Below, piece after piece: positions 3,647-63,356 of a stretch of 64,000 nucleotides of DNA. The position numbers were made by a program, and so were the translations under genes. How positions within the stretch are numbered: position 1 is the stretch's first letter; every line of letters begins with the position of its first letter. Under the pieces are notes generated by a model. That model was not told the origin of the DNA. It did no database searches and worked only from the letters and a program-made list of their open reading frames with translations. Origin of the DNA: a virus; the UHGV virus genome UHGV-1550212. One strand, written 5' to 3'.

Positions 3647-6600
3647 TTATCGAACAAGGAATGACGTACCAACAACCATATTCGGGATTGCCAAGCCATT
3701 GCCAGACTGGCTTACTGCAACTGTGCCACTTGTGTAACCTGACAATGCTGCAGTAATTGTTGCCGACCTGCTGTTATCTGAACCCCAGTTATTTGCAGCG
3801 GACAATGTCGAACCTCTGATTGTGAATGCGCCATTGTTCGATGAGTACGTTGGAGTAACCGCAGCATCTGATGTTGTAGACTGACCTGTCGTGTACTTTG
3901 TGACAGTTCGACCTGTCGTAGACAATGTTGCAGTGCCACCAGCAGCCCCAAAGCTTGTAACAGTTGAGCTGACAATCAGAGTCTTCGTAGTCGAAGTCAC
4001 ACTGTTGGCTTCCTGTGTAGCAGTGATTGCTTTTGAGCCAGTTTGACCATTCAACGCAACCGTCATATTGACTGTAGCGGTTCTTGCAGAACCAGCAGTT
4101 GTGCCACGATTTGCAGCAGTCAATGAACCGGTTGTACTACTGTTAAGCGTAAAGCCAGTAGTTGTAGCCATACTGTATGAAATTGTACCGCCAGATGTAA
4201 TAGTAGTTTTTGAACCACTTGTGTACGTTGCTGTCTGCGAGTATGCTGGCGTGCCTGTTGGAGTCTTTGTTGCACCTGCTGCAGCAAATGTTGCATATGA
4301 TGTTGCTGTAGTAACTGTGACTGCACTGTATGATACACTGTTAGTTGCTTGATAGACATCAAGTGCTTTTGTAGCAGTCTTAGACCCTTCACCAGTAGCA
4401 GTTGCAGTCAAAGTGCCAATCTTTGTACGAGCTTTAACTGTAGTGCCAAGCGATGATGCGCTGACTTTTGTGCTATACGCAATGCTAACTGAGCCTGCCC
4501 TTGTGCTGCCAGACGTATATGTAATTGTCTGTGATGCACTGATGCCAGACATTGATGCGACTTCACCACCGCCAGCAGGAATATCTGATACAGAACCACC
4601 AGAGATTGTTACTGCGCCATATGTCGTAATTGCATTTGCAGCTTGGTACACATCGACTGCTTTTGTTCCAGATTTGCCATTGACTGTTACAGTAACAGTA
4701 GATGTTGTAATCTTTGTGCGGGCTTTAGCAGTAGTGCCAAGTGAACTACCAGACACTGCGCCAGTAGACGTTGTTACACCAGTACCAGACCATGATTTGC
4801 TGCCGCCAGACGTAACTGTCTGTGTTGAGCCACTTGACCACGTAACTGATTGACTGAATGACACCGTAGGCGTAACTGAGCCGCCTTTTGCAGGAATATC
4901 ACCATAAGTCATCGAAACTGTTGGCATGCCATATGTAGCAGCATTAGCATTTTGAGATGCAGTAGCAGTCTTTGTTCCACTGATAGTCTTTGTGCCTGCT
5001 GCGTTGTATGATGCAGTTGGCGTCCATGTAGCCTTTACAGTCTTTGTGACTGTTGGCGATGTTGTTGCACCACTTGCAGTAGTGCCTTTTGATGATGCGG
5101 TTATAGCACCAGTAGATGCATTGAGTGCAGTGAACAATCCTGATGCGCCTGGCCAGCTATATGATGTTGTAGTTGACAATGAACCATACGTAGATGCTGG
5201 CGCAGTAGTTGAAGTACTGCCACTACTAAAGTGGTATGTTACTGTGTTTGCACCATTTGACGGTGTAGATGTTCCGCCACCTGCAGCAATTGCAGGATAT
5301 GACATCGAACCAACTGCAATATTGAGTGCAGTCACATAGTTGCCTGCCTGATAAATCGTTGCAGACTTGCTGGCAGATTTGCCATTCATTGTGACTTTAA
5401 CAGTCAGTGTACCTGCAGTAGTCTGGTTAGATATTGTAGTGCCCTTTGATTGCACAGTGACTGTCGATGTGTACTCAATTGTTCCGCCGCTTGTCAGTGT
5501 TTCTGTCGTCTTTTCACCAGTAGCATATGTCGTAGTTTTGACTTGCGAATAAGTTACTGTACCAGATTTTACAGAACCGCCGCTTGCTGCAATGATAGTT
5601 GCAGACGGTGTCAAGTTAACTGTGATATCGCTATATGTAACTGTGCCAGCAGATTGAGCTGCTTGATAAACATCTGCAGCTTTTGATGCAGACTTACCGT
5701 TGAGTGCTACTGTGACAGTTAATGTGCCAATCTTTGTTCGTGGCTTAACTGATGTGCCAAGTGATGATGCAGATATACCTGCTGCTGGGCTATATGAAAT
5801 TGTGCCACCAGTAGTAATGTTCTGAGTTGATGTTGATGTGTATGTAGCAGTCTGCGAATATGACACATTGCCACTCTTAATTGTACCACCAGTTGCAGGA
5901 ATATCTGCTACAGTGAAGCTTGAAATTGTAACTGCGCCATATGACACAGTGTTTGCAGCTTGCTTGACTGTGCAAGAACCAGTTTTTGTAACACCGCCCT
6001 CAGTGTATGAGCCAGAAATTGTAATGCTGCGTTCTGCGCCTACGACTGTTGTGCGATTTGCTGCAGTTACTGTAGTAGTCGACAATGTAAAGCCAGTTGC
6101 TGAACCGCTAAGTGTTGCAGATACTGCAGCAGATGACGTTGAGCCTGATGCATATGTGTATGACGCTGTTGAAGTGATTGTAGTTGAACCGCCACCAGCT
6201 GCCAATGTTGCAGCGCCAGGTGTCAATGTCAAGCCATTCAGCGTCTTTGAGTTTGCAGTTTGTGTTGCAGTAGCAGTTTTTGTAGCAGACTTGCCATTGA
6301 TTGCTACCGTAACTGTGACAGCATTTGAAGCATCAGTAGAGCCTACATATGATGTGCCCATTGACGTTACAGTCAATGCGCCACTTGTCGTATTCAATGT
6401 CCAGCGTGACTTAGCAGTCATTGCATAAGACAATGTAGCACCACTTGTCAATGTGCCACCTGAGCCAGCTACGCCATTCCAAGTCCAGACTTGTGAATAT
6501 GAAACAGTTGGGTTTGATGTACCACCAGCAGGAGCAATGTTTGAATATGAGAACGTTCCAATGACAGGCGTTTCATAGACTTTAGCGCCTGCAGCTTGGT

Positions 6601-7975
6601 TAAACGTGATGTCTTTTGATGCAGACTTACCATTTGCGGTGACTGTCAAGGTAACAACAAATCCATTACGTGCAGCAGTAGAATTGTTGTTTGTCACTGC
6701 GACATTCAAGCCAGATAAGCTATAGCCTGTTACAGCAGTTTTGACCGCAGCAGTCCATGTGCCACCTGATGTGTTGCTGTCAGTTGAACCGCTGCTGTAT
6801 GTCATTGACTGCGTAAATGTTGCAGATGCATTGGCTGCAACAGTTTGACCTGCTACTGCAAGAGCAACTGGTGTTGTCTTTGTAATGACTGGCGTGCCAT
6901 ATGTAATGCTGTTAGCAGCTTGTGTAATCGATACAGTAGCAGTTGCATTGCCATATGACGCTGTGCCACTAAATGACCGAGCATCACCGACAGTCTTGCC
7001 ACGATTTGCAGATGTTACAGAATTTGCAGATATCGTAAATCCTGTTGCAGTGCCAGTAATTGTAGGCTTGACATTTGTTTCAGTAGATGTAACAACACCA
7101 TTCCATGTTACAGTGTAAGTGCCTGTGATTGTTGATGTTCCACCTGCTGCAGTATGACTTGTTGAATATGCGTTCAGAGCAAGTTTGTATACGACTGAGC
7201 CTGCTGCTTGTGAACATTTAACAGTCTTCGATAAGTCATGACCACTTACAGTCAGTGTTGGTGTAACTGCTGCAGTTGATGCATTGTTCGGTGTATTGAC
7301 AGTGATTGTTACAGGGCCTGTGCCAGATGCTTTTGAGACTGACCAACCTGCAGGTACGCCTGAAATTGTCCATGCAAAGTCAGGGTTACAAGAAATTGCG
7401 AATGTTTTCGATTCACCCTTTGCAACAAATGACAGAGTTTCTGGTGATACTGCCAATGTTGCACTTGCACCAGCTTGATTTACAGTAAATGCTGCAGACT
7501 CGCCACCAGGCGTTGACAATGTAAAAGTGAACGCCTTTGCAGCGATTGCAGTATGTGCATCAATCTGCACTCGTACAATCACTTCAAATTCAGCATTGAC
7601 ACCAGGGTCATTGTCAAAGTTTGTGTTGAGCTCGTAGTTTTTGCCTGCAACAGTCACGCCAAGCACTGTGCCGCTTGCAGTACCACCAGTACTGCCAAGC
7701 ACAAGTTTTTGTGCATTTGTGACGCATTTCAATGTTGCAATAGTGCCACCATTTGACGCAATGTTTGTAGATGCAACTGTAGCTCGTATAGTTTCACCAG
7801 GAGACTCTTGCAATACTGCACAGTTTTCAGTTACTACTGGTGAACCTGTAGTTGTTTGCGCAGTAAAGCTGCCAGACCTGTTATTTCGACCAGTATGCAC
7901 AGATGCTTTGACAGACAACTGTGAGTTGCCTGTGCCAACATCAGGTGTAACTGTCAACCAAGTAGGCTTTGCCAT
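3647..7975 (-). CDS. large tail fibre/adhesin-like protein with BACON-like N-terminus and tandem Ig-like repeats
   Basis: 1442 aa, ATG confirmed; BACON-like N-terminus, then very Thr/Ser/Gly/Ala/Val-rich repetitive beta-rich sequence with recurring GGT.SG, LNGKSASK and VYQA motifs typical of Ig-like repeat arrays. Confidence 0.6.
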   Translation of the reverse strand: MAKPTWLTVTPDVGTGNSQLSVKASVHTGRNNRSGSFTAQTTTGSPVVTENCAVLQESPGETIRATVASTNIASNGGTIATLKCVTNAQKLVLGSTGGTASGTVLGVTVAGKNYELNTNFDNDPGVNAEFEVIVRVQIDAHTAIAAKAFTFTLSTPGGESAAFTVNQAGASATLAVSPETLSFVAKGESKTFAISCNPDFAWTISGVPAGWSVSKASGTGPVTITVNTPNNASTAAVTPTLTVSGHDLSKTVKCSQAAGSVVYKLALNAYSTSHTAAGGTSTITGTYTVTWNGVVTSTETNVKPTITGTATGFTISANSVTSANRGKTVGDARSFSGTASYGNATATVSITQAANSITYGTPVITKTTPVALAVAGQTVAANASATFTQSMTYSSGSTDSNTSGGTWTAAVKTAVTGYSLSGLNVAVTNNNSTAARNGFVVTLTVTANGKSASKDITFNQAAGAKVYETPVIGTFSYSNIAPAGGTSNPTVSYSQVWTWNGVAGSGGTLTSGATLSYAMTAKSRWTLNTTSGALTVTSMGTSYVGSTDASNAVTVTVAINGKSATKTATATQTANSKTLNGLTLTPGAATLAAGGGSTTITSTASYTYASGSTSSAAVSATLSGSATGFTLSTTTVTAANRTTVVGAERSITISGSYTEGGVTKTGSCTVKQAANTVSYGAVTISSFTVADIPATGGTIKSGNVSYSQTATYTSTSTQNITTGGTISYSPAAGISASSLGTSVKPRTKIGTLTVTVALNGKSASKAADVYQAAQSAGTVTYSDITVNLTPSATIIAASGGSVKSGTVTYSQVKTTTYATGEKTTETLTSGGTIEYTSTVTVQSKGTTISNQTTAGTLTVKVTMNGKSASKSATIYQAGNYVTALNIAVGSMSYPAIAAGGGTSTPSNGANTVTYHFSSGSTSTTAPASTYGSLSTTTSYSWPGASGLFTALNASTGAITASSKGTTASGATTSPTVTKTVKATWTPTASYNAAGTKTISGTKTATASQNANAATYGMPTVSMTYGDIPAKGGSVTPTVSFSQSVTWSSGSTQTVTSGGSKSWSGTGVTTSTGAVSGSSLGTTAKARTKITTSTVTVTVNGKSGTKAVDVYQAANAITTYGAVTISGGSVSDIPAGGGEVASMSGISASQTITYTSGSTRAGSVSIAYSTKVSASSLGTTVKARTKIGTLTATATGEGSKTATKALDVYQATNSVSYSAVTVTTATSYATFAAAGATKTPTGTPAYSQTATYTSGSKTTITSGGTISYSMATTTGFTLNSSTTGSLTAANRGTTAGSARTATVNMTVALNGQTGSKAITATQEANSVTSTTKTLIVSSTVTSFGAAGGTATLSTTGRTVTKYTTGQSTTSDAAVTPTYSSNNGAFTIRGSTLSAANNWGSDNSRSATITAALSGYTSGTVAVSQSGNGLAIPNMVVGTSFLVR

Positions 7976-60215: not shown

Positions 60216-60701
60216 TCATTTGTAGTGCTCAGTTATGTATGCTGAGCATAGCAATACAACTGATATGCAAATGACAATGTATGTTGGTGTAATCAGTGTC
60301 ACATTAAATAGCAATGCAGTCAATGCGCATACTGTTACTGATATAAGTGTTGAAATGAATACTGCATATGTACTAAACTTGCTTTTGAATAGACGCTCAA
60401 TGATGTACGTTGTTACAATAGATAGCAAGACTATGCATACAAATAACAGCAACCAAGTTGAGTTTGACGTTGTCGGCTCTTCAATAAATTGCAATGTTGC
60501 AGATGATACTTCAATGTTGTTTGGCGCTTGTAAAGTGCCACTTGCTGCATCTGCGTACATCACAGTTAAGTAGTGTCGTTGAATTTCTGCTGCGTCTACT
60601 TTATAGATTCTATGCCATGCAACATCTGATATGATGTATGTTGCAGCCATAAATGCAGCAATGCATAGCATATAAGAGCCAAACTTTGCAATCGGTTTCA
60701 T
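60216..60701 (-). CDS. integral membrane protein (about 4 transmembrane segments)
   Basis: Track start 60749 is TTG; ATG at 60699-60701 (MKPIAKFGSYM); multiple long hydrophobic stretches. Confidence 0.45.
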   Translation of the reverse strand: MKPIAKFGSYMLCIAAFMAATYIISDVAWHRIYKVDAAEIQRHYLTVMYADAASGTLQAPNNIEVSSATLQFIEEPTTSNSTWLLLFVCIVLLSIVTTYIIERLFKSKFSTYAVFISTLISVTVCALTALLFNVTLITPTYIVICISVVLLCSAYITEHYK

Positions 60702-61079
60702 GCAAATATATTTTTGTTTGTATATGTACATAAAAGAGCAAGTTCTCAATGTGGAGAACTTGCTCAGCTGACCTGTTGCCAGGTGAAAGCGTGGTGCAGC
60801 ACCTTGTGCTGCAATGGCTATGCTGCCATCGCCATAACGGGCTGAGCATTGCCCAGCATCATTACACGACCAGCTGCATTAAGCGTACGCTTTGCTTTGT
60901 TGAAAAATTTGCCAGTTATCTGGTATCTGCACATCTATTCAAGCGACCTACTATGCAATCAAATGCCTGTCGAGCCCAATGTTTGAGCAGTTGTTTGTCA
61001 GATGCTCAGCTGACTGCAGTCTTTCTGAGTGTATCAAGTTCAGCGATTCTGCATCTTTGCTAAATGGCAATAGTTCAGG

Positions 61080-61155
61080 TGGACTCGCCGAGAATCGAAC
61101 TCGGGTCTTACATAGCGCATCCTTGACTTGGTCCTGTAAACAGGGTTGTCAACAT
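61080..61155 (-). pseudogene. tRNA-like 3' fragment (T-arm plus acceptor 3' strand only)
   Basis: Minus strand: CCGAG-TTCGATT-CTCGG followed by CGAGTCC-A, but no matching 5' acceptor strand, D-arm or anticodon arm within 80 nt upstream. Confidence 0.3.
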
Positions 61156-61160
61156 GCATT

Positions 61161-61231
61161 GCAATACGACAGGACTCGAACCTGCGACCTCGGATTGGAC
61201 GTCCGCGCTCTTACCGCTGAGCTACGTATTC
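61161..61231 (-). tRNA. tRNA, probably tRNA-Gly (anticodon TCC); Trp (CCA) not excluded
   Basis: Minus strand: GAATACG-TA-GCTC-AGCGGTAA-GAGC-GCGGA-CGTCCAA-TCCGA-GGTC-GCAGG-TTCGAGT-CCTGT-CGTATTG-C. Canonical D- and T-arms; anticodon stem has a G-A pair and position 33 is G, so the register is uncertain. Hand fold. Confidence 0.5.
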
Positions 61232-61321
61232 TTATCAATTGACTGCACTGCAATGCAATCAATCGTGCCAATGATATTTGACGCATAATTGCAGTTATGC
61301 GTAACAATTCAAATGTCATTG

Positions 61322-61394
61322 AGCCAACTGCAGGAGTCGAACCTGTAACCTGCTGATTACAAATCAGCTGCTCTGCCAATTGAGCTAAGTTGGC
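61322..61394 (-). tRNA. tRNA-Thr (anticodon TGT)
   Basis: Minus strand: GCCAACT-TA-GCTC-AATTGGCA-GAGC-A-GCTGA-TTTGTAA-TCAGC-AGGTT-ACAGG-TTCGACT-CCTGC-AGTTGGC-T; perfect 7-bp acceptor and 5-bp anticodon stem. Confidence 0.8.
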
Positions 61395-61476
61395 ATAAAG
61401 TCGTTGGGCCATTGCAACCCAAACCTATCATCTTTGTCTAACCAAAGATGCAAGTGTTCTCTTACACCACGACTTG

Positions 61477-61548
61477 TAGCCGAACTTGGAGTCGAACCAA
61501 GCTTTCGAGAATGAAAATCTCGCGTCCTAACCGATAGACGAAACGGCC
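61477..61548 (-). tRNA. tRNA-Glu (anticodon TTC), acceptor stem imperfect
   Basis: Minus strand: GGCCGTT-TC-GTCT-ATCGGTTA-GGAC-G-CGAGA-TTTTCAT-TCTCG-AAAG-CTTGG-TTCGACT-CCAAG-TTCGGCT-A; D-arm identical in form to E. coli tRNA-Glu, but acceptor pairs 6-67 and 7-66 are T-T. Confidence 0.5.
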
Positions 61549-61635
61549 AAGAGCAGTTCAAGTCTGCAGCATTGAACTGCGGAAACAATGCCTGTACGGG
61601 CAGCAAATTGTGCAGATACAGCGACATTGCAAAAT

Positions 61636-61728
61636 CACACCGAACCAAGTTTGTGGCTCTTCTGTCTCATAAAAACAAGTAATCATTACACTTGGCACCA
61701 ATGATTCTGATGTAAAAATCGGTGTGTT
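61636..61728. ncRNA. structured RNA-like element with 8-bp terminal inverted repeat (not a canonical tRNA)
   Basis: CACACCGA (61636-61643) pairs with TCGGTGTG (61721-61728); internal hairpin CAAGT-AATCATTAC-ACTTG; no T-loop consensus. Lies between tRNA-Glu and tRNA-Ser. Confidence 0.25.
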
Positions 61729-61731
61729 ATG

Positions 61732-61816
61732 CGGAGAGTAAGGGATTCGAACCCCTGGTACGTTGCCGTACAGTGGTTTTCAAGACCACCGCCATCGACC
61801 GCTCGGCCAACTCTCC
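61732..61816 (-). tRNA. tRNA-Ser (anticodon TGA), long variable arm
   Basis: Minus strand: GGAGAGT-TG-GCCG-AGCGGTCGAT-GGC-G-GTGGT-CTTGAAA-ACCAC-TGTACGGCAACGTACC-AGGGG-TTCGAAT-CCCTT-ACTCTCC-G. Confidence 0.8.
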
Positions 61817-62010
61817 ATAAAACATTGCATAAGCATTCTTATCTCTTGATGAGACCAAGTAGCTAATTTGGCAAGTTTGTTATATCTATCGTGACTGTTG
61901 CAGTTTGTTTGTCACTCAATACACAAAACTTTCGAACATTCATTGACAGCACTGCAATATCGCTTTTTAAGCTTAGCCATCAATGTATTTATGCAATGTA
62001 TAACAATTCG

Positions 62011-62092
62011 TAGCCAAACCGGGACTTGAACCCAGACTCCTAATGGAACAACATTTTGAGTGTTGCGTGTCTACCAATTCCACCATTTGGCC
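62011..62092 (-). tRNA. tRNA-Leu (anticodon CAA), long variable arm
   Basis: Minus strand: GGCCAAA-TG-GTG-GAATTGGTAGA-CAC-G-CAACA-CTCAAAA-TGTTG-TTCCATTAGGAGTC-TGGGT-TCAAGTC-CCGG-TTTGGCT-A. Confidence 0.75.
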
Positions 62093-62182
62093 ATTTACAA
62101 ATGCAATCTATTTCACAACTGTTTGCATTTGCATTGTTTAACACTAAAAATATGATTCATCTAATCAAAAACCAGAGAATTG

Positions 62183-62256
62183 TAGGGTAGACAGGACTCA
62201 AACCTGCGACCACGTGGTCCCAAACCACGCATTCTAATCAACTGAACTACTACCCT
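62183..62256 (-). tRNA. tRNA-Pro (anticodon TGG)
   Basis: Minus strand: AGGGTAG-TA-GTTC-AGTTGATTA-GAAT-G-CGTGG-TTTGGGA-CCACG-TGGTC-GCAGG-TTTGAGT-CCTGT-CTACCCT-A; all stems pair. Confidence 0.8.
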
Positions 62257-62262
62257 AAGTAG

Positions 62263-62334
62263 TTGAACCGTCTGGACTCGAACCAGAAATGGCTGAACCA
62301 AAATCAGCTGTGTTACCGATTACACCACGATTCA
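62263..62334 (-). tRNA. tRNA-Gln (anticodon TTG)
   Basis: Minus strand: TGAATCG-TG-GTG-TAATCGGTAA-CAC-A-GCTGA-TTTTGGT-TCAGC-CATT-TCTGG-TTCGAGT-CCAGA-CGGTTCA-A; U1-A72 as in bacterial tRNA-Gln. Confidence 0.75.
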
Positions 62335-62387
62335 ATCAAATGCAAATCTTTGTAAGGCGTTTGCAATCCTGTAATTTGTTTATGTAT

Positions 62388-62428
62388 TTTATAGTGATAT
62401 AATACTACAAACATTTATGATTTGCACC
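62388..62428 (-). promoter_or_regulatory. composite promoter-like element upstream of the tRNA cluster
   Basis: Minus strand: GGTGCAAATCATAAATGTTTGTAGTATTATATCACTATAAAATAC, about 55-95 nt upstream of tRNA-Gln (first tRNA in transcription order). Confidence 0.45.
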
Positions 62429-62450
62429 ATATACTGTAACTTTGTATCAC

Positions 62451-62813
62451 TTAATTGTACAATATGACTCTGTCTTTAAGTTTGTGCATGTGTAGCACGC
62501 TTGTAATATCTACTGGCAACTTATATGACCCATCAGATATTGCAAATGCAGCAAGTTGCATAATCAAATCTGCATTGTCTGTAAGAACTTCTGCAAATTT
62601 ACTGGCATCACAACATGCATAATACTTGCGAATTGTTGTTGCTTGTTTTTGTATGATGACGCGCACGTAAACAGTTTGAGCAATGATTGCGCGTCGTAAA
62701 TCAACTTTGACAATACACATAGTGTCATCGTGGTCATTTATGACATGTCGCCATACACCGTCATTGCAAATGCCGTGCTGTGCTATAAGTATTTTCGTGA
62801 TATCAGACATCAT
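62451..62813 (-). CDS. hypothetical protein
   Basis: 120-aa ORF, ATG confirmed. Confidence 0.45.
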   Translation of the reverse strand: MMSDITKILIAQHGICNDGVWRHVINDHDDTMCIVKVDLRRAIIAQTVYVRVIIQKQATTIRKYYACCDASKFAEVLTDNADLIMQLAAFAISDGSYKLPVDITSVLHMHKLKDRVILYN

Positions 62814-62858
62814 CTCTGTTCAAATATAATTTTTTGATAATAAAATTCCATACAAATA

Positions 62859-63356
62859 TCATTCGATGTTACCAGATAATATCCGAATGGCATCCAATGC
62901 ATTTTCTCGTATTAAGCCAAACTTACCTATAACTTGAACAAAATGTTTGTCATTTTCAAATGTTGAGTCGTCAAGAATGACATATTGTTTGATGTTATGT
63001 TTATCAACAAGCGCAGGCACTGCAGCAAATCTGTCATAAAAGCCCTCAGCATAAATTGATGGCAACAAATAGCCCGGCATATTGCGCTTAAGCCACATTG
63101 TCTTGCAGTCATCAAGAATAGCCCAACTACTTATCAAGCAAATTGCGCCAACATCTGACATCTGACAAATGTATCTCAACCAGCCAACACAACGTTCGTC
63201 AAATAATTGACCAAACTCATCTCTCGACTGCACATCCATGTTTGCACGATGTTTTGACATGTGCAACATATTGAGATTATCTTGGCTATTCAAAACGCCA
63301 TCAATATCCAAGAAAATTACTTTGTCAGGCCAAATCACTTTGCTTGCTGCGTTCAT
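62859..63356 (-). CDS. HAD-superfamily phosphatase-like protein
   Basis: 165 aa, ATG confirmed; N-terminal KVIFLDIDGVLNS matches HAD motif I (DxDG[T/V]); later VILDDS is a candidate motif IV. Confidence 0.45.
   Translation of the reverse strand: MNAASKVIWPDKVIFLDIDGVLNSQDNLNMLHMSKHRANMDVQSRDEFGQLFDERCVGWLRYICQMSDVGAICLISSWAILDDCKTMWLKRNMPGYLLPSIYAEGFYDRFAAVPALVDKHNIKQYVILDDSTFENDKHFVQVIGKFGLIRENALDAIRILSGNIE

Follow-up and report, generated by a model that had tools for sequence, protein, structure and literature searches.

Transfer-messenger RNAs (tmRNAs) encoded by phages have been known since the Bxz1-type mycobacteriophages (PMC4131195), and a 2025 tmRNA database holds 79 phage sequences (PMC11915505). 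Two-piece phage tmRNAs were surveyed by Buchholz et al. in 2022, who counted 53 of them among 133 unique phage tmRNAs, mostly from marine or aquatic phages (PMC9004378). The second system that bears on the locus described here is the transfer RNA (tRNA) cluster of phage T4 (NC_000866, 70908-72530), in which the genes follow one another in the order Gln, Leu, Gly, Pro, Ser, Thr, Ile, segB, Arg, rnaD and rnaC. We analysed a 64,000-nt stretch of the phage genome UHGV-1550212 (the window, to which all positions refer unless a relative is named), whose minus strand carries a tRNA cluster that a preliminary description had called T4-like. That description had also singled out two neighbours of the tRNA genes as non-canonical, namely a T-arm with an acceptor 3′ strand lacking a 5′ half (61080-61155) and a 93-nt element (61636-61728), and had offered processed RNAs, decaying tRNA genes or the remains of a tRNA-derived attachment site as explanations. 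As judged from sequence and covariation, the orphan half-tRNA belongs to a split (circularly permuted, two-piece) tmRNA, of which it forms the acceptor piece, and the window very probably contains a phage operon in which seven tRNA genes precede this permuted tmRNA gene and one strong terminator.

Because the missing 5′ strand of the half-tRNA was found about 100 nt downstream of its T-arm, the element can be read as a permuted tmRNA. The two-piece gene, which is the last of the cluster, spans about 61160-60730 on the minus strand; ARAGORN calls a permuted tmRNA (tmRNA*) at 60727-61169 (-), and at 60818-61138 (-) the sequence matches the Rfam family RF04321 (tmRNA_permuted) along the entire length of the model, with 30.8 bits and E = 6.6e-4. 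Within the acceptor piece (61078-61160), with which the interval 61080-61155 of the preliminary description nearly coincides, the T-arm CCGAG-UUCGAUU-CUCGG (61104-61088), made up of a stem of 5 bp and a UUCGAnn loop of 7 nt, is followed by the acceptor 3′ strand CGAGUCC (61087-61081), the discriminator A (A73, 61080) and CC (61079-61078). An intervening segment (60978-61077), presumably removed in maturation according to our reading of the sequence, separates this piece from the coding piece (60736-60977), which carries the acceptor 5′ strand GGGCUCG (60977-60971). The two strands pair to form a 7-bp acceptor stem that includes the alanine identity pair, G3·U70. The gene order is permuted, with the acceptor 5′ strand downstream of the T-arm and acceptor 3′ strand, and the same order is found in six relatives.

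The acceptor and coding pieces are further joined by helix P2, in which CUAUGUAA (61115-61108) pairs with UUGCAUAG (60958-60951). When the two pieces were cofolded, the acceptor stem, T-arm and P2, plus further pairs, formed in trans for UHGV-1550212 and for a distant relative (L005, see below). The tag frame (60895-60818) opens with the resume codon GCA (60895-60893), closes with the stop codon TAG (60820-60818) and encodes AKRTLNAAGRVMMLGNAQPVMAMAA in 25 codons, and a post-stop hairpin lies at 60812-60796. An intrinsic terminator with a 12-bp stem and the tail UUUUAU (60730-60765, minus strand), which is the strongest minus-strand site that the terminator scan returned within 60500-62900, closes the tRNA-tmRNA transcription unit. 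A hairpin in the intervening segment (UGAGCA...UGCUCA, 61008-60984) ends 6 nt upstream of G1.

Relatives of the locus were located through its flanking proteins and come from independent assemblies: L001 (IMG/VR, 175.5 kb), L015, L016, L017, L018, L022 and L023, together with the more distant L005. ARAGORN independently calls a permuted tmRNA at the syntenic position in L005, L016, L018 and L022, and RF04321 scores there 30.6 bits in L016, 27.2 in L017, 35.1 in L018 and 74.9 in L005, the last being above the gathering score of 47 (the L005 gene also reaches 44 bits with RF01849). The tRNA-like domain occurs as a type A (GGGCUCG/CGAGUCC in UHGV-1550212, L016 and L022), a type B (GGGGGUG/CACCUCC in L001, L015, L017 and L018) and a third form in L005 (GGGGCUG/CAGCUCC). 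Across four distinct alleles, 46 of 46 cells of the acceptor and T stems are occupied by standard pairs, five pairs are doubly compensated (three in the acceptor stem and two in the T-stem) and G3·U is invariant. Sliding the register by one to three columns reduced this pairing to 37-54%. The hairpin just upstream of G1 likewise keeps its pairing while its sequence changes (GAGCA/UGCUC in UHGV-1550212, GGACA/UGUCC in L001, GCAAG/CUUGC in L005).

The tag frame also shows a pattern of change. Compared with L018, it has 10 synonymous and 6 nonsynonymous codon differences, with 14 of 24 changes at third positions; a 3-nt indel is in frame, the stop position is kept (TAG to TAA) and the C-terminal PVMAMAA is unchanged. 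The tag of L005, AKNSKVVAFAGHSQRMAA, starts with AK, ends with RMAA and is preceded by a similar CAAACAAA context. By these substitutions the tag frame behaves like a translated open reading frame (ORF). Gene architecture, pairing, covariation and coding-type conservation of the tag are direct observations on these genomes. An exact-pattern search with the type-A T-arm and acceptor strand found no match in viral contigs or bacterial genomes, and a degenerate tag-codon pattern recovered from viral contigs only one relative, which was already known. A type-B 22-mer matched one Rubritalea metagenome-assembled genome, inside an ordinary coding region without ARAGORN or Rfam signal, and was rejected as a chance hit.

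Several features weigh against a two-piece tmRNA. The 30.8 bits of the UHGV-1550212 copy are below the RF04321 gathering threshold of 47, and ARAGORN makes no tmRNA call in L001, L015 or L017. Upstream of the resume codon there is just a 4-bp hairpin (CCAG-AUAA-CUGG), the type-B counterpart of which shifts register (GCCA/UGGC in L001) and in L018 lacks one pair, and a pseudoknot PK1 could not be drawn there convincingly. The CCA end is partly encoded in UHGV-1550212 (CC, then U), and relatives encode CCA, CA or CG; the tag, at 25 residues, is long and ends with MAA rather than the common LAA. The T-loop of the type-B allele is unusual in having 6 nt (UUCGAU) between 5-bp stems, and it does so in four independent assemblies (L001 at about 7795-7815, L015 at 2158-2178, L017 and L018), in one of which, L018, a stem pair is compensated (CCGCC/GGCGG to CCGGC/GCCGG). 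P2 is less clear in type-B alleles, as judged from cofolding. The sequences behind the RF04321 model come solely from alpha-, beta- and cyanobacteria (PMC11915505).

How the tmRNA would work, including its processing, charging, dependence on SmpB and benefit to the phage, can be outlined by analogy with two-piece tmRNAs established in Caulobacter and other bacteria. Transcription of the operon would yield a single precursor, in which host RNase P would cut at G1 (60977) and the 3′ end would be trimmed and completed to CCA after A 61080 by the CCA-adding enzyme, which would be needed because the gene here supplies CC alone. Loss of the intervening 100 nt would release two RNAs that would be held together via the acceptor stem and helix P2 and would form a tRNA-Ala-like domain, to be charged by alanyl-tRNA synthetase through G3·U70. 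SmpB, with EF-Tu, would then deliver the charged tmRNA to stalled ribosomes, translation would resume on the tag frame, and AKRTLNAAGRVMMLGNAQPVMAMAA would be added to the stalled protein. The phage might benefit because ribosome recycling is kept up during infection or because depleted or targeted host tmRNA is replaced; proposals in the literature comprise upkeep of the hijacked translation apparatus, selective tagging and sensing of the host state (PMC9004378; PMC7162821).

An alternative use of the same molecule would be as a decoy, the tmRNA being made mainly for a tRNA-like domain that titrates SmpB or inhibits host trans-translation and not for tagging. There is a precedent in the phage tmRNA of mycobacteriophage DS6A, which consists of the tRNA-like domain only and for which a decoy role was proposed, and a similar molecule inhibits Escherichia coli tmRNA (PMC4131195; PMC11915505); moreover, the tRNA-like domain is the part under allele diversification. 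However, the codon-like conservation of the tag, with its stop position and C-terminus kept, is unexpected if the frame is never translated, and we consider the decoy unlikely. Less probable still, to the point of being very improbable, is that the half-tRNA is a decaying tRNA fragment and that the ARAGORN and Rfam tmRNA calls are false positives. The sub-threshold score and the three relatives missed by ARAGORN speak for this, as do the high false-positive rates of some tmRNA detectors (PMC4131195), but a pseudogene would retain neither 46 of 46 paired cells, five double compensations across 100 nt and an invariant G3·U70, nor codon-like tag substitutions and an in-frame indel, and it would not have a syntenic homolog (L005) above Rfam's curated threshold. 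That integration or excision left the half-tRNA behind as what remains of a tRNA- or tmRNA-derived attachment site (an attP or attL-type duplication) can be dismissed as hardly credible: what is classically duplicated where integration occurs is the 3′ half of a tmRNA or tRNA (PMC11915505; PMC9004378), but the genome looks like that of a large tailed phage of myovirus type with a T4-type terminase and no integrase among the subset of ORFs scanned, neither the 5′ strand nor the P2 partner, tag frame or terminator is missing and all of them co-vary, and in bacterial genomes the 3′ segment has no match (type A) or just the one chance match in a coding sequence (type B). Because changes in one half are compensated in the other, decay and an attachment-site remnant, two of the explanations offered initially, are both excluded for practical purposes, whereas the third, a processed stable RNA, could hold for at least one of the two elements in the form of the two-piece tmRNA.

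Upstream of the tmRNA, ARAGORN and Rfam RF00005 (gathering score 29) agree on seven minus-strand tRNAs at 61161-62334 with scores of 44-66 bits, the same seven that had been proposed from hand folding. The cluster starts with tRNA-Gln (UUG, 62262-62334, 59.1 bits), which is followed by tRNA-Pro (UGG, 62182-62256, 62.5 bits), tRNA-Leu (CAA, 62010-62092, 54.2 bits, of a single allele class), tRNA-Ser (UGA, with a long variable arm, 61731-61816, 56.5 bits), tRNA-Glu (UUC, 61476-61548, 46.4 bits), tRNA-Thr (UGU, 61321-61394, 65.9 bits) and tRNA-Gly (UCC, 61161-61231, 44.1 bits, identical across all relatives). Two of them carry the atypical features already noticed by eye, which are seen again in the Rfam alignments. 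In tRNA-Gly, the anticodon loop CGUCCAA has G at position 33, which in tRNAs is normally U, and the anticodon stem consists of 4 bp and a G·A mismatch; in tRNA-Glu, acceptor pairs 6 and 7 are U·U mismatches. Because these oddities are the same in every relative carrying the genes, they cannot be put down to sequencing errors and are stable.

A search of the minus strand upstream of the cluster returned no sigma-70-like promoter. PHROGs and Pfam gave no match for the genes flanking it except for a HAD_SAK_2 domain ('Swiss Army Knife RNA repair' HAD domain, 54 bits) in the protein encoded just upstream, at 62859-63356 (-). This protein, which is also found at L005 3269-3856 and L023 1945-2442, is kept in all cluster-bearing relatives, and its conserved position upstream of the cluster hints at RNA-repair functions tied to the tRNA genes.

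The second non-canonical neighbour is the 93-nt element, which lies between tRNA-Ser and tRNA-Glu (61636-61728, minus strand) and which, like the half-tRNA, neither ARAGORN nor Rfam reassigns to an ordinary tRNA: it received no ARAGORN call and matched no Rfam family at E<=10, RF00005 included, and its predicted fold is not a cloverleaf. The 8-bp closing stem reported for it is present as CACACCGA/UCGGUGUG (61726-61719 with 61643-61636). Inside, a hairpin AAUCAUU/AAUGAUU (61706-61700 with 61687-61681) can be drawn that is not in the minimum-free-energy fold, and its loop contains CCAAGU (61695-61690), which is complementary to ACUUGG (61650-61645), so that a pseudoknot would possibly form together with the hairpin. 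A 41-codon Cys-rich frame running through the element was rejected as a small ORF on account of 1- and 2-nt indels in L001 and L016.

From its fold and covariation, the 93-nt element may be a separate, co-transcribed structured RNA. The interior is heavily substituted in L023, where the hairpin (GAUUGUU/AACAAUC) keeps 7 of 7 pairs through three double changes while CCAAGU, the downstream ACUUGG and the outer stem are unchanged; 105 of 105 cells are paired and all register slides collapse. Two points weigh against it: all of this covariation comes from the one lineage L023, and the outer and candidate pseudoknot stems are invariant, hence uninformative. Because the covariation is from one lineage and the other helices never vary, we consider a functional RNA, rather than a mere processing spacer, to be about an even bet. 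The chance that the element is an inter-tRNA spacer with hairpins that are processing punctuation or incidental, giving no stable or functional RNA, we put slightly short of even. In favour of a spacer, the fold is only modestly better than shuffles (z = -2.7), Rfam offers no family, the element has no second copy in the window and no counterpart in distant relatives, its covariation has that single source, and in L022 it is deleted together with tRNA-Glu while the rest of the cluster is retained, so that it is dispensable in at least one genome. A spacer does not readily account for the L023 hairpin, in which all pairs are restored next to an identical loop, complement and outer stem, nor for the fact that the element behaves as the surrounding tRNA genes do.

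That behaviour is more unusual than the tmRNA itself: very divergent alleles of several tRNAs and of the tRNA-like domain are reshuffled among near-identical genomes, beside homing-endonuclease-like insertions. Between UHGV-1550212 (60896-62334) and L001, L015, L016, L022 and L023, spacers are 91-100% identical, whereas alleles of tRNA-Gln, tRNA-Pro, tRNA-Ser, tRNA-Thr, the interior of the 93-nt element and both halves of the tmRNA's tRNA-like domain are only 44-80% identical, so that tRNA bodies are less conserved than spacers, the reverse of the usual. The alternative tRNA-Gln allele of L016 is 64% identical, and tRNA-Pro falls into three allele classes that are 49-80% identical to one another. 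All four combinations of tRNA-Ser with tRNA-like-domain alleles exist (in UHGV-1550212, L022, L015 and L001). Because every allele recurs in at least two independent assemblies, and in differing combinations, the alleles are real and recombining.

Some of these alleles depart strongly from canonical tRNAs. The alternative tRNA-Ser(UGA) allele, which is identical in L001 (7103-7186) and L022 (1420-1503), receives no ARAGORN or Rfam call; its acceptor stem has 7 bp and its D-like stem 6-7 bp, the anticodon loop CUUGAAA is unchanged, UUCG caps the variable arm, and the T-arm is aberrant. An 86-nt tRNA-Thr(UGU) allele in L022 (1994-2079) has a long variable arm that forms a hairpin, which is unusual for a bacterial-type tRNA-Thr.

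Two insertions accompany the alleles. In L015 (1305-2144, and also L017 1-130), a 279-amino-acid ORF with a DUF559 nuclease domain of the PD-(D/E)xK type (25.9 bits against a cutoff of 20.6 bits) is inserted exactly between tRNA-Gly and the tmRNA, corresponding to about 61155-61160 in UHGV-1550212, with its stop codon within the tmRNA acceptor piece. By eye, its basic motifs read as NUMOD3-like, and by sequence it resembles a homing endonuclease of the free-standing kind, as segB is in T4. In L022 (1504-1993), two short overlapping ORFs without Pfam match replace the 93-nt element and tRNA-Glu; the first opens with a motif that we read by eye as NUMOD3-like (HKVSDDVRKRISATMKARK), and the region is probably a decayed second homing-endonuclease gene. 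T4 SegB is the precedent for a homing endonuclease in a tRNA cluster (PMC2330249) and was recently tied to the evasion of a tRNA-cleaving defence (PMC13096335).

A joint reading of these observations, which we put forward as possible but rather doubtful, is that tRNA bodies, the tmRNA's tRNA-like domain and the interior of the 93-nt RNA are old, structurally compensated alleles that are shuffled as cassettes by homing-endonuclease-driven gene conversion and whose diversity is kept by host selection. The drive would probably be gene conversion by the homing-endonuclease-like genes inserting in the cluster, and the selection would be exerted by host tRNA-targeting nucleases or by host-specific charging or processing enzymes. 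The G33 of tRNA-Gly, the 6-nt T-loop, the tRNA-Thr with a long variable arm and the tRNA-Ser allele with a 6-bp D-stem would then be escape variants. If true, the phage tmRNA would itself be both target and player in a tRNA-centred arms race.

UHGV-1550212 is a large tailed phage with genes almost all on the minus strand, and it encodes a T4-type large terminase, a baseplate wedge protein, an NAD-dependent ligase and topoisomerase II subunits. By terminase and topoisomerase, its nearest cultured relatives, at 27-47% identity, are the Chryseobacterium phages MA9V-1 and MA9V-2, phage PAU (whose host has been reclassified as Sphingobacterium), Tenacibaculum and Flavobacterium phages and the Prevotella Lak phages, which weakly suggests a Bacteroidota host; one-piece tmRNA is the form known from Bacteroidota. 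The ENA assembly labels ZELL14 and SHET22 may be codes of human-gut studies. The Bacteroidota-type -7 box TAnnTTTG occurred 6 times in intergenic DNA against 3.2 ± 1.7 expected, which is not clearly enriched and gives no host information. In L004, L007, L012 and L014 (about 52% identity in a neighbour protein), the order gyrB...topoisomerase A is kept and the whole tRNA/tmRNA cluster is absent, and thus the cluster is an accessory module of one sub-lineage. It is also absent from Chryseobacterium phage MA9V-1, and a metagenome scan with the neighbour-protein family returned three loci, none with the cluster.

Other observations were made in the same sequences. In L005, between tRNA-Gln and tRNA-Thr (5090-5158), lies a tRNA-like cloverleaf (fold z = -4.1) without ARAGORN or Rfam call, which has a long anticodon stem and a loop UUUUAA(U) that could present a UUA anticodon and be ochre-suppressor-like. 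At 711-875 in the window, a 28-nt unit (2.3 copies) and a 34-nt unit (3.6 copies, 98% matches) are repeated in tandem, and TTGCATCTTGCA occurs in every unit; the repeats are possibly a protein-binding array or an origin-like iteron region. The pentamer TTGCA (complement TGCAA) is in excess across the whole genome, with 812 matches as compared with 660 ± 24 in dinucleotide-preserving shuffles, and its candidacy as a cluster-specific spacer motif was rejected for that reason.

An apparent broken tRNA has here been resolved into what reads as a complete gene for a ribosome-rescue RNA that is missed at standard Rfam thresholds. It extends phage two-piece tmRNAs past the marine groups, to a lineage whose nearest cultured relatives infect Bacteroidota, and, if that host is confirmed, it raises the question of the origin of the permuted gene and of its acceptance by host enzymes. 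The allele mosaic is a natural experiment on the selection of phage tRNA and tmRNA structure, and the diversity of alleles may be the outcome of an arms race; tRNA-cleaving defence systems and phage tRNA countermeasures are now being uncovered (PMC10264068, PMC11555353, PMC13096335).

How far the locus resembles T4 can now be stated. Five anticodons are common to both phages (those of Gly, Thr, Ser, Pro and Gln, by ARAGORN on T4), as had been claimed for UGA, UGG, UUG, UGU and, with less certainty, UCC, and both have a compact same-strand tRNA cluster starting with tRNA-Gln, a free-standing homing endonuclease inside the cluster (segB in T4; DUF559/NUMOD3-like ORFs in the relatives L015, L017 and L022) and non-tRNA stable RNA genes at the 3′ end of the cluster. 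In contrast, the Leu anticodon is UAA in T4 and CAA in UHGV-1550212, tRNAs of the same isoacceptor are 59-68% identical between the two phages as compared with 47-68% for unrelated pairs, and the endonuclease is of the GIY-YIG type in T4 and has a PD-(D/E)xK-type DUF559 domain in L015 and L017. The T4 cluster contains no tmRNA according to ARAGORN or Rfam, and neither the tmRNA nor the 93-nt element is similar to T4 rnaC or rnaD, since blastn-short aligns no more than 13 nt of T-loop type (to rnaC) and Rfam assigns no family in common. The term T4-like therefore holds for the choice of anticodons and the layout of the cluster and not for tRNA similarity or the Leu anticodon, and the analogy drawn earlier to the T4 stable RNAs holds for their position at the cluster's 3′ end and not for their sequence; on sequence comparison, the resemblance is one of layout and U34 anticodon preference, not homology. 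We also observed that T4 rnaC (species 1 RNA; L019 2909-3047) ends with a perfect T-arm and an acceptor-like strand (CCGGG-UUCGAAU-CCCGG-CGUUUCG) and is thus also a 'half-tRNA'-like stable RNA ending a phage tRNA cluster, for which Rfam gives a weak tRNA-Sec-like match only.

Among described tmRNAs, those of the Bxz1-group mycobacteriophages, Bacillus phage G and huge phages are likewise phage ssrA genes beside large tRNA sets with a presumed ribosome-rescue role (PMC4131195, PMC7162821), but they are standard one-piece genes, whereas that of UHGV-1550212 is permuted. The two-piece tmRNA of the Caulobacter type (RF01849, RF04321) shares with it the gene order, a tRNA-like domain assembled in trans (acceptor stem, T-arm and P2), G3·U70, A73 and a GCN resume codon; the UHGV-1550212 gene differs in reaching just 30.8 bits, in having no identifiable PK1, in tag length and sequence, in being phage-borne and in the dimorphism of its tRNA-like-domain alleles. 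The tmRNAs of marine and aquatic phages such as OM43 phage Melnitz, the pelagimyophages and cyanophages are, as here, phage-encoded permuted ssrA genes with the acceptor piece upstream of the coding piece (PMC9004378). Phages of the Melnitz type have, like UHGV-1550212, a myovirus-like genome with a T4-type terminase, tRNA genes and an ARAGORN tmRNA*. They are set apart by the glutamine riboswitch, none of which was found in UHGV-1550212 by Rfam search, and UHGV-1550212 has no blastn similarity to any phage record; its nearest cultured phages infect Bacteroidota rather than Alphaproteobacteria or Cyanobacteria, and its tmRNA lies at the 3′ end of a seven-tRNA operon, has a 25-residue tag ending with MAA and a sub-threshold Rfam score. 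Two-piece tmRNAs of phages have already been described, and the gene of UHGV-1550212 is a further, divergent example of them.

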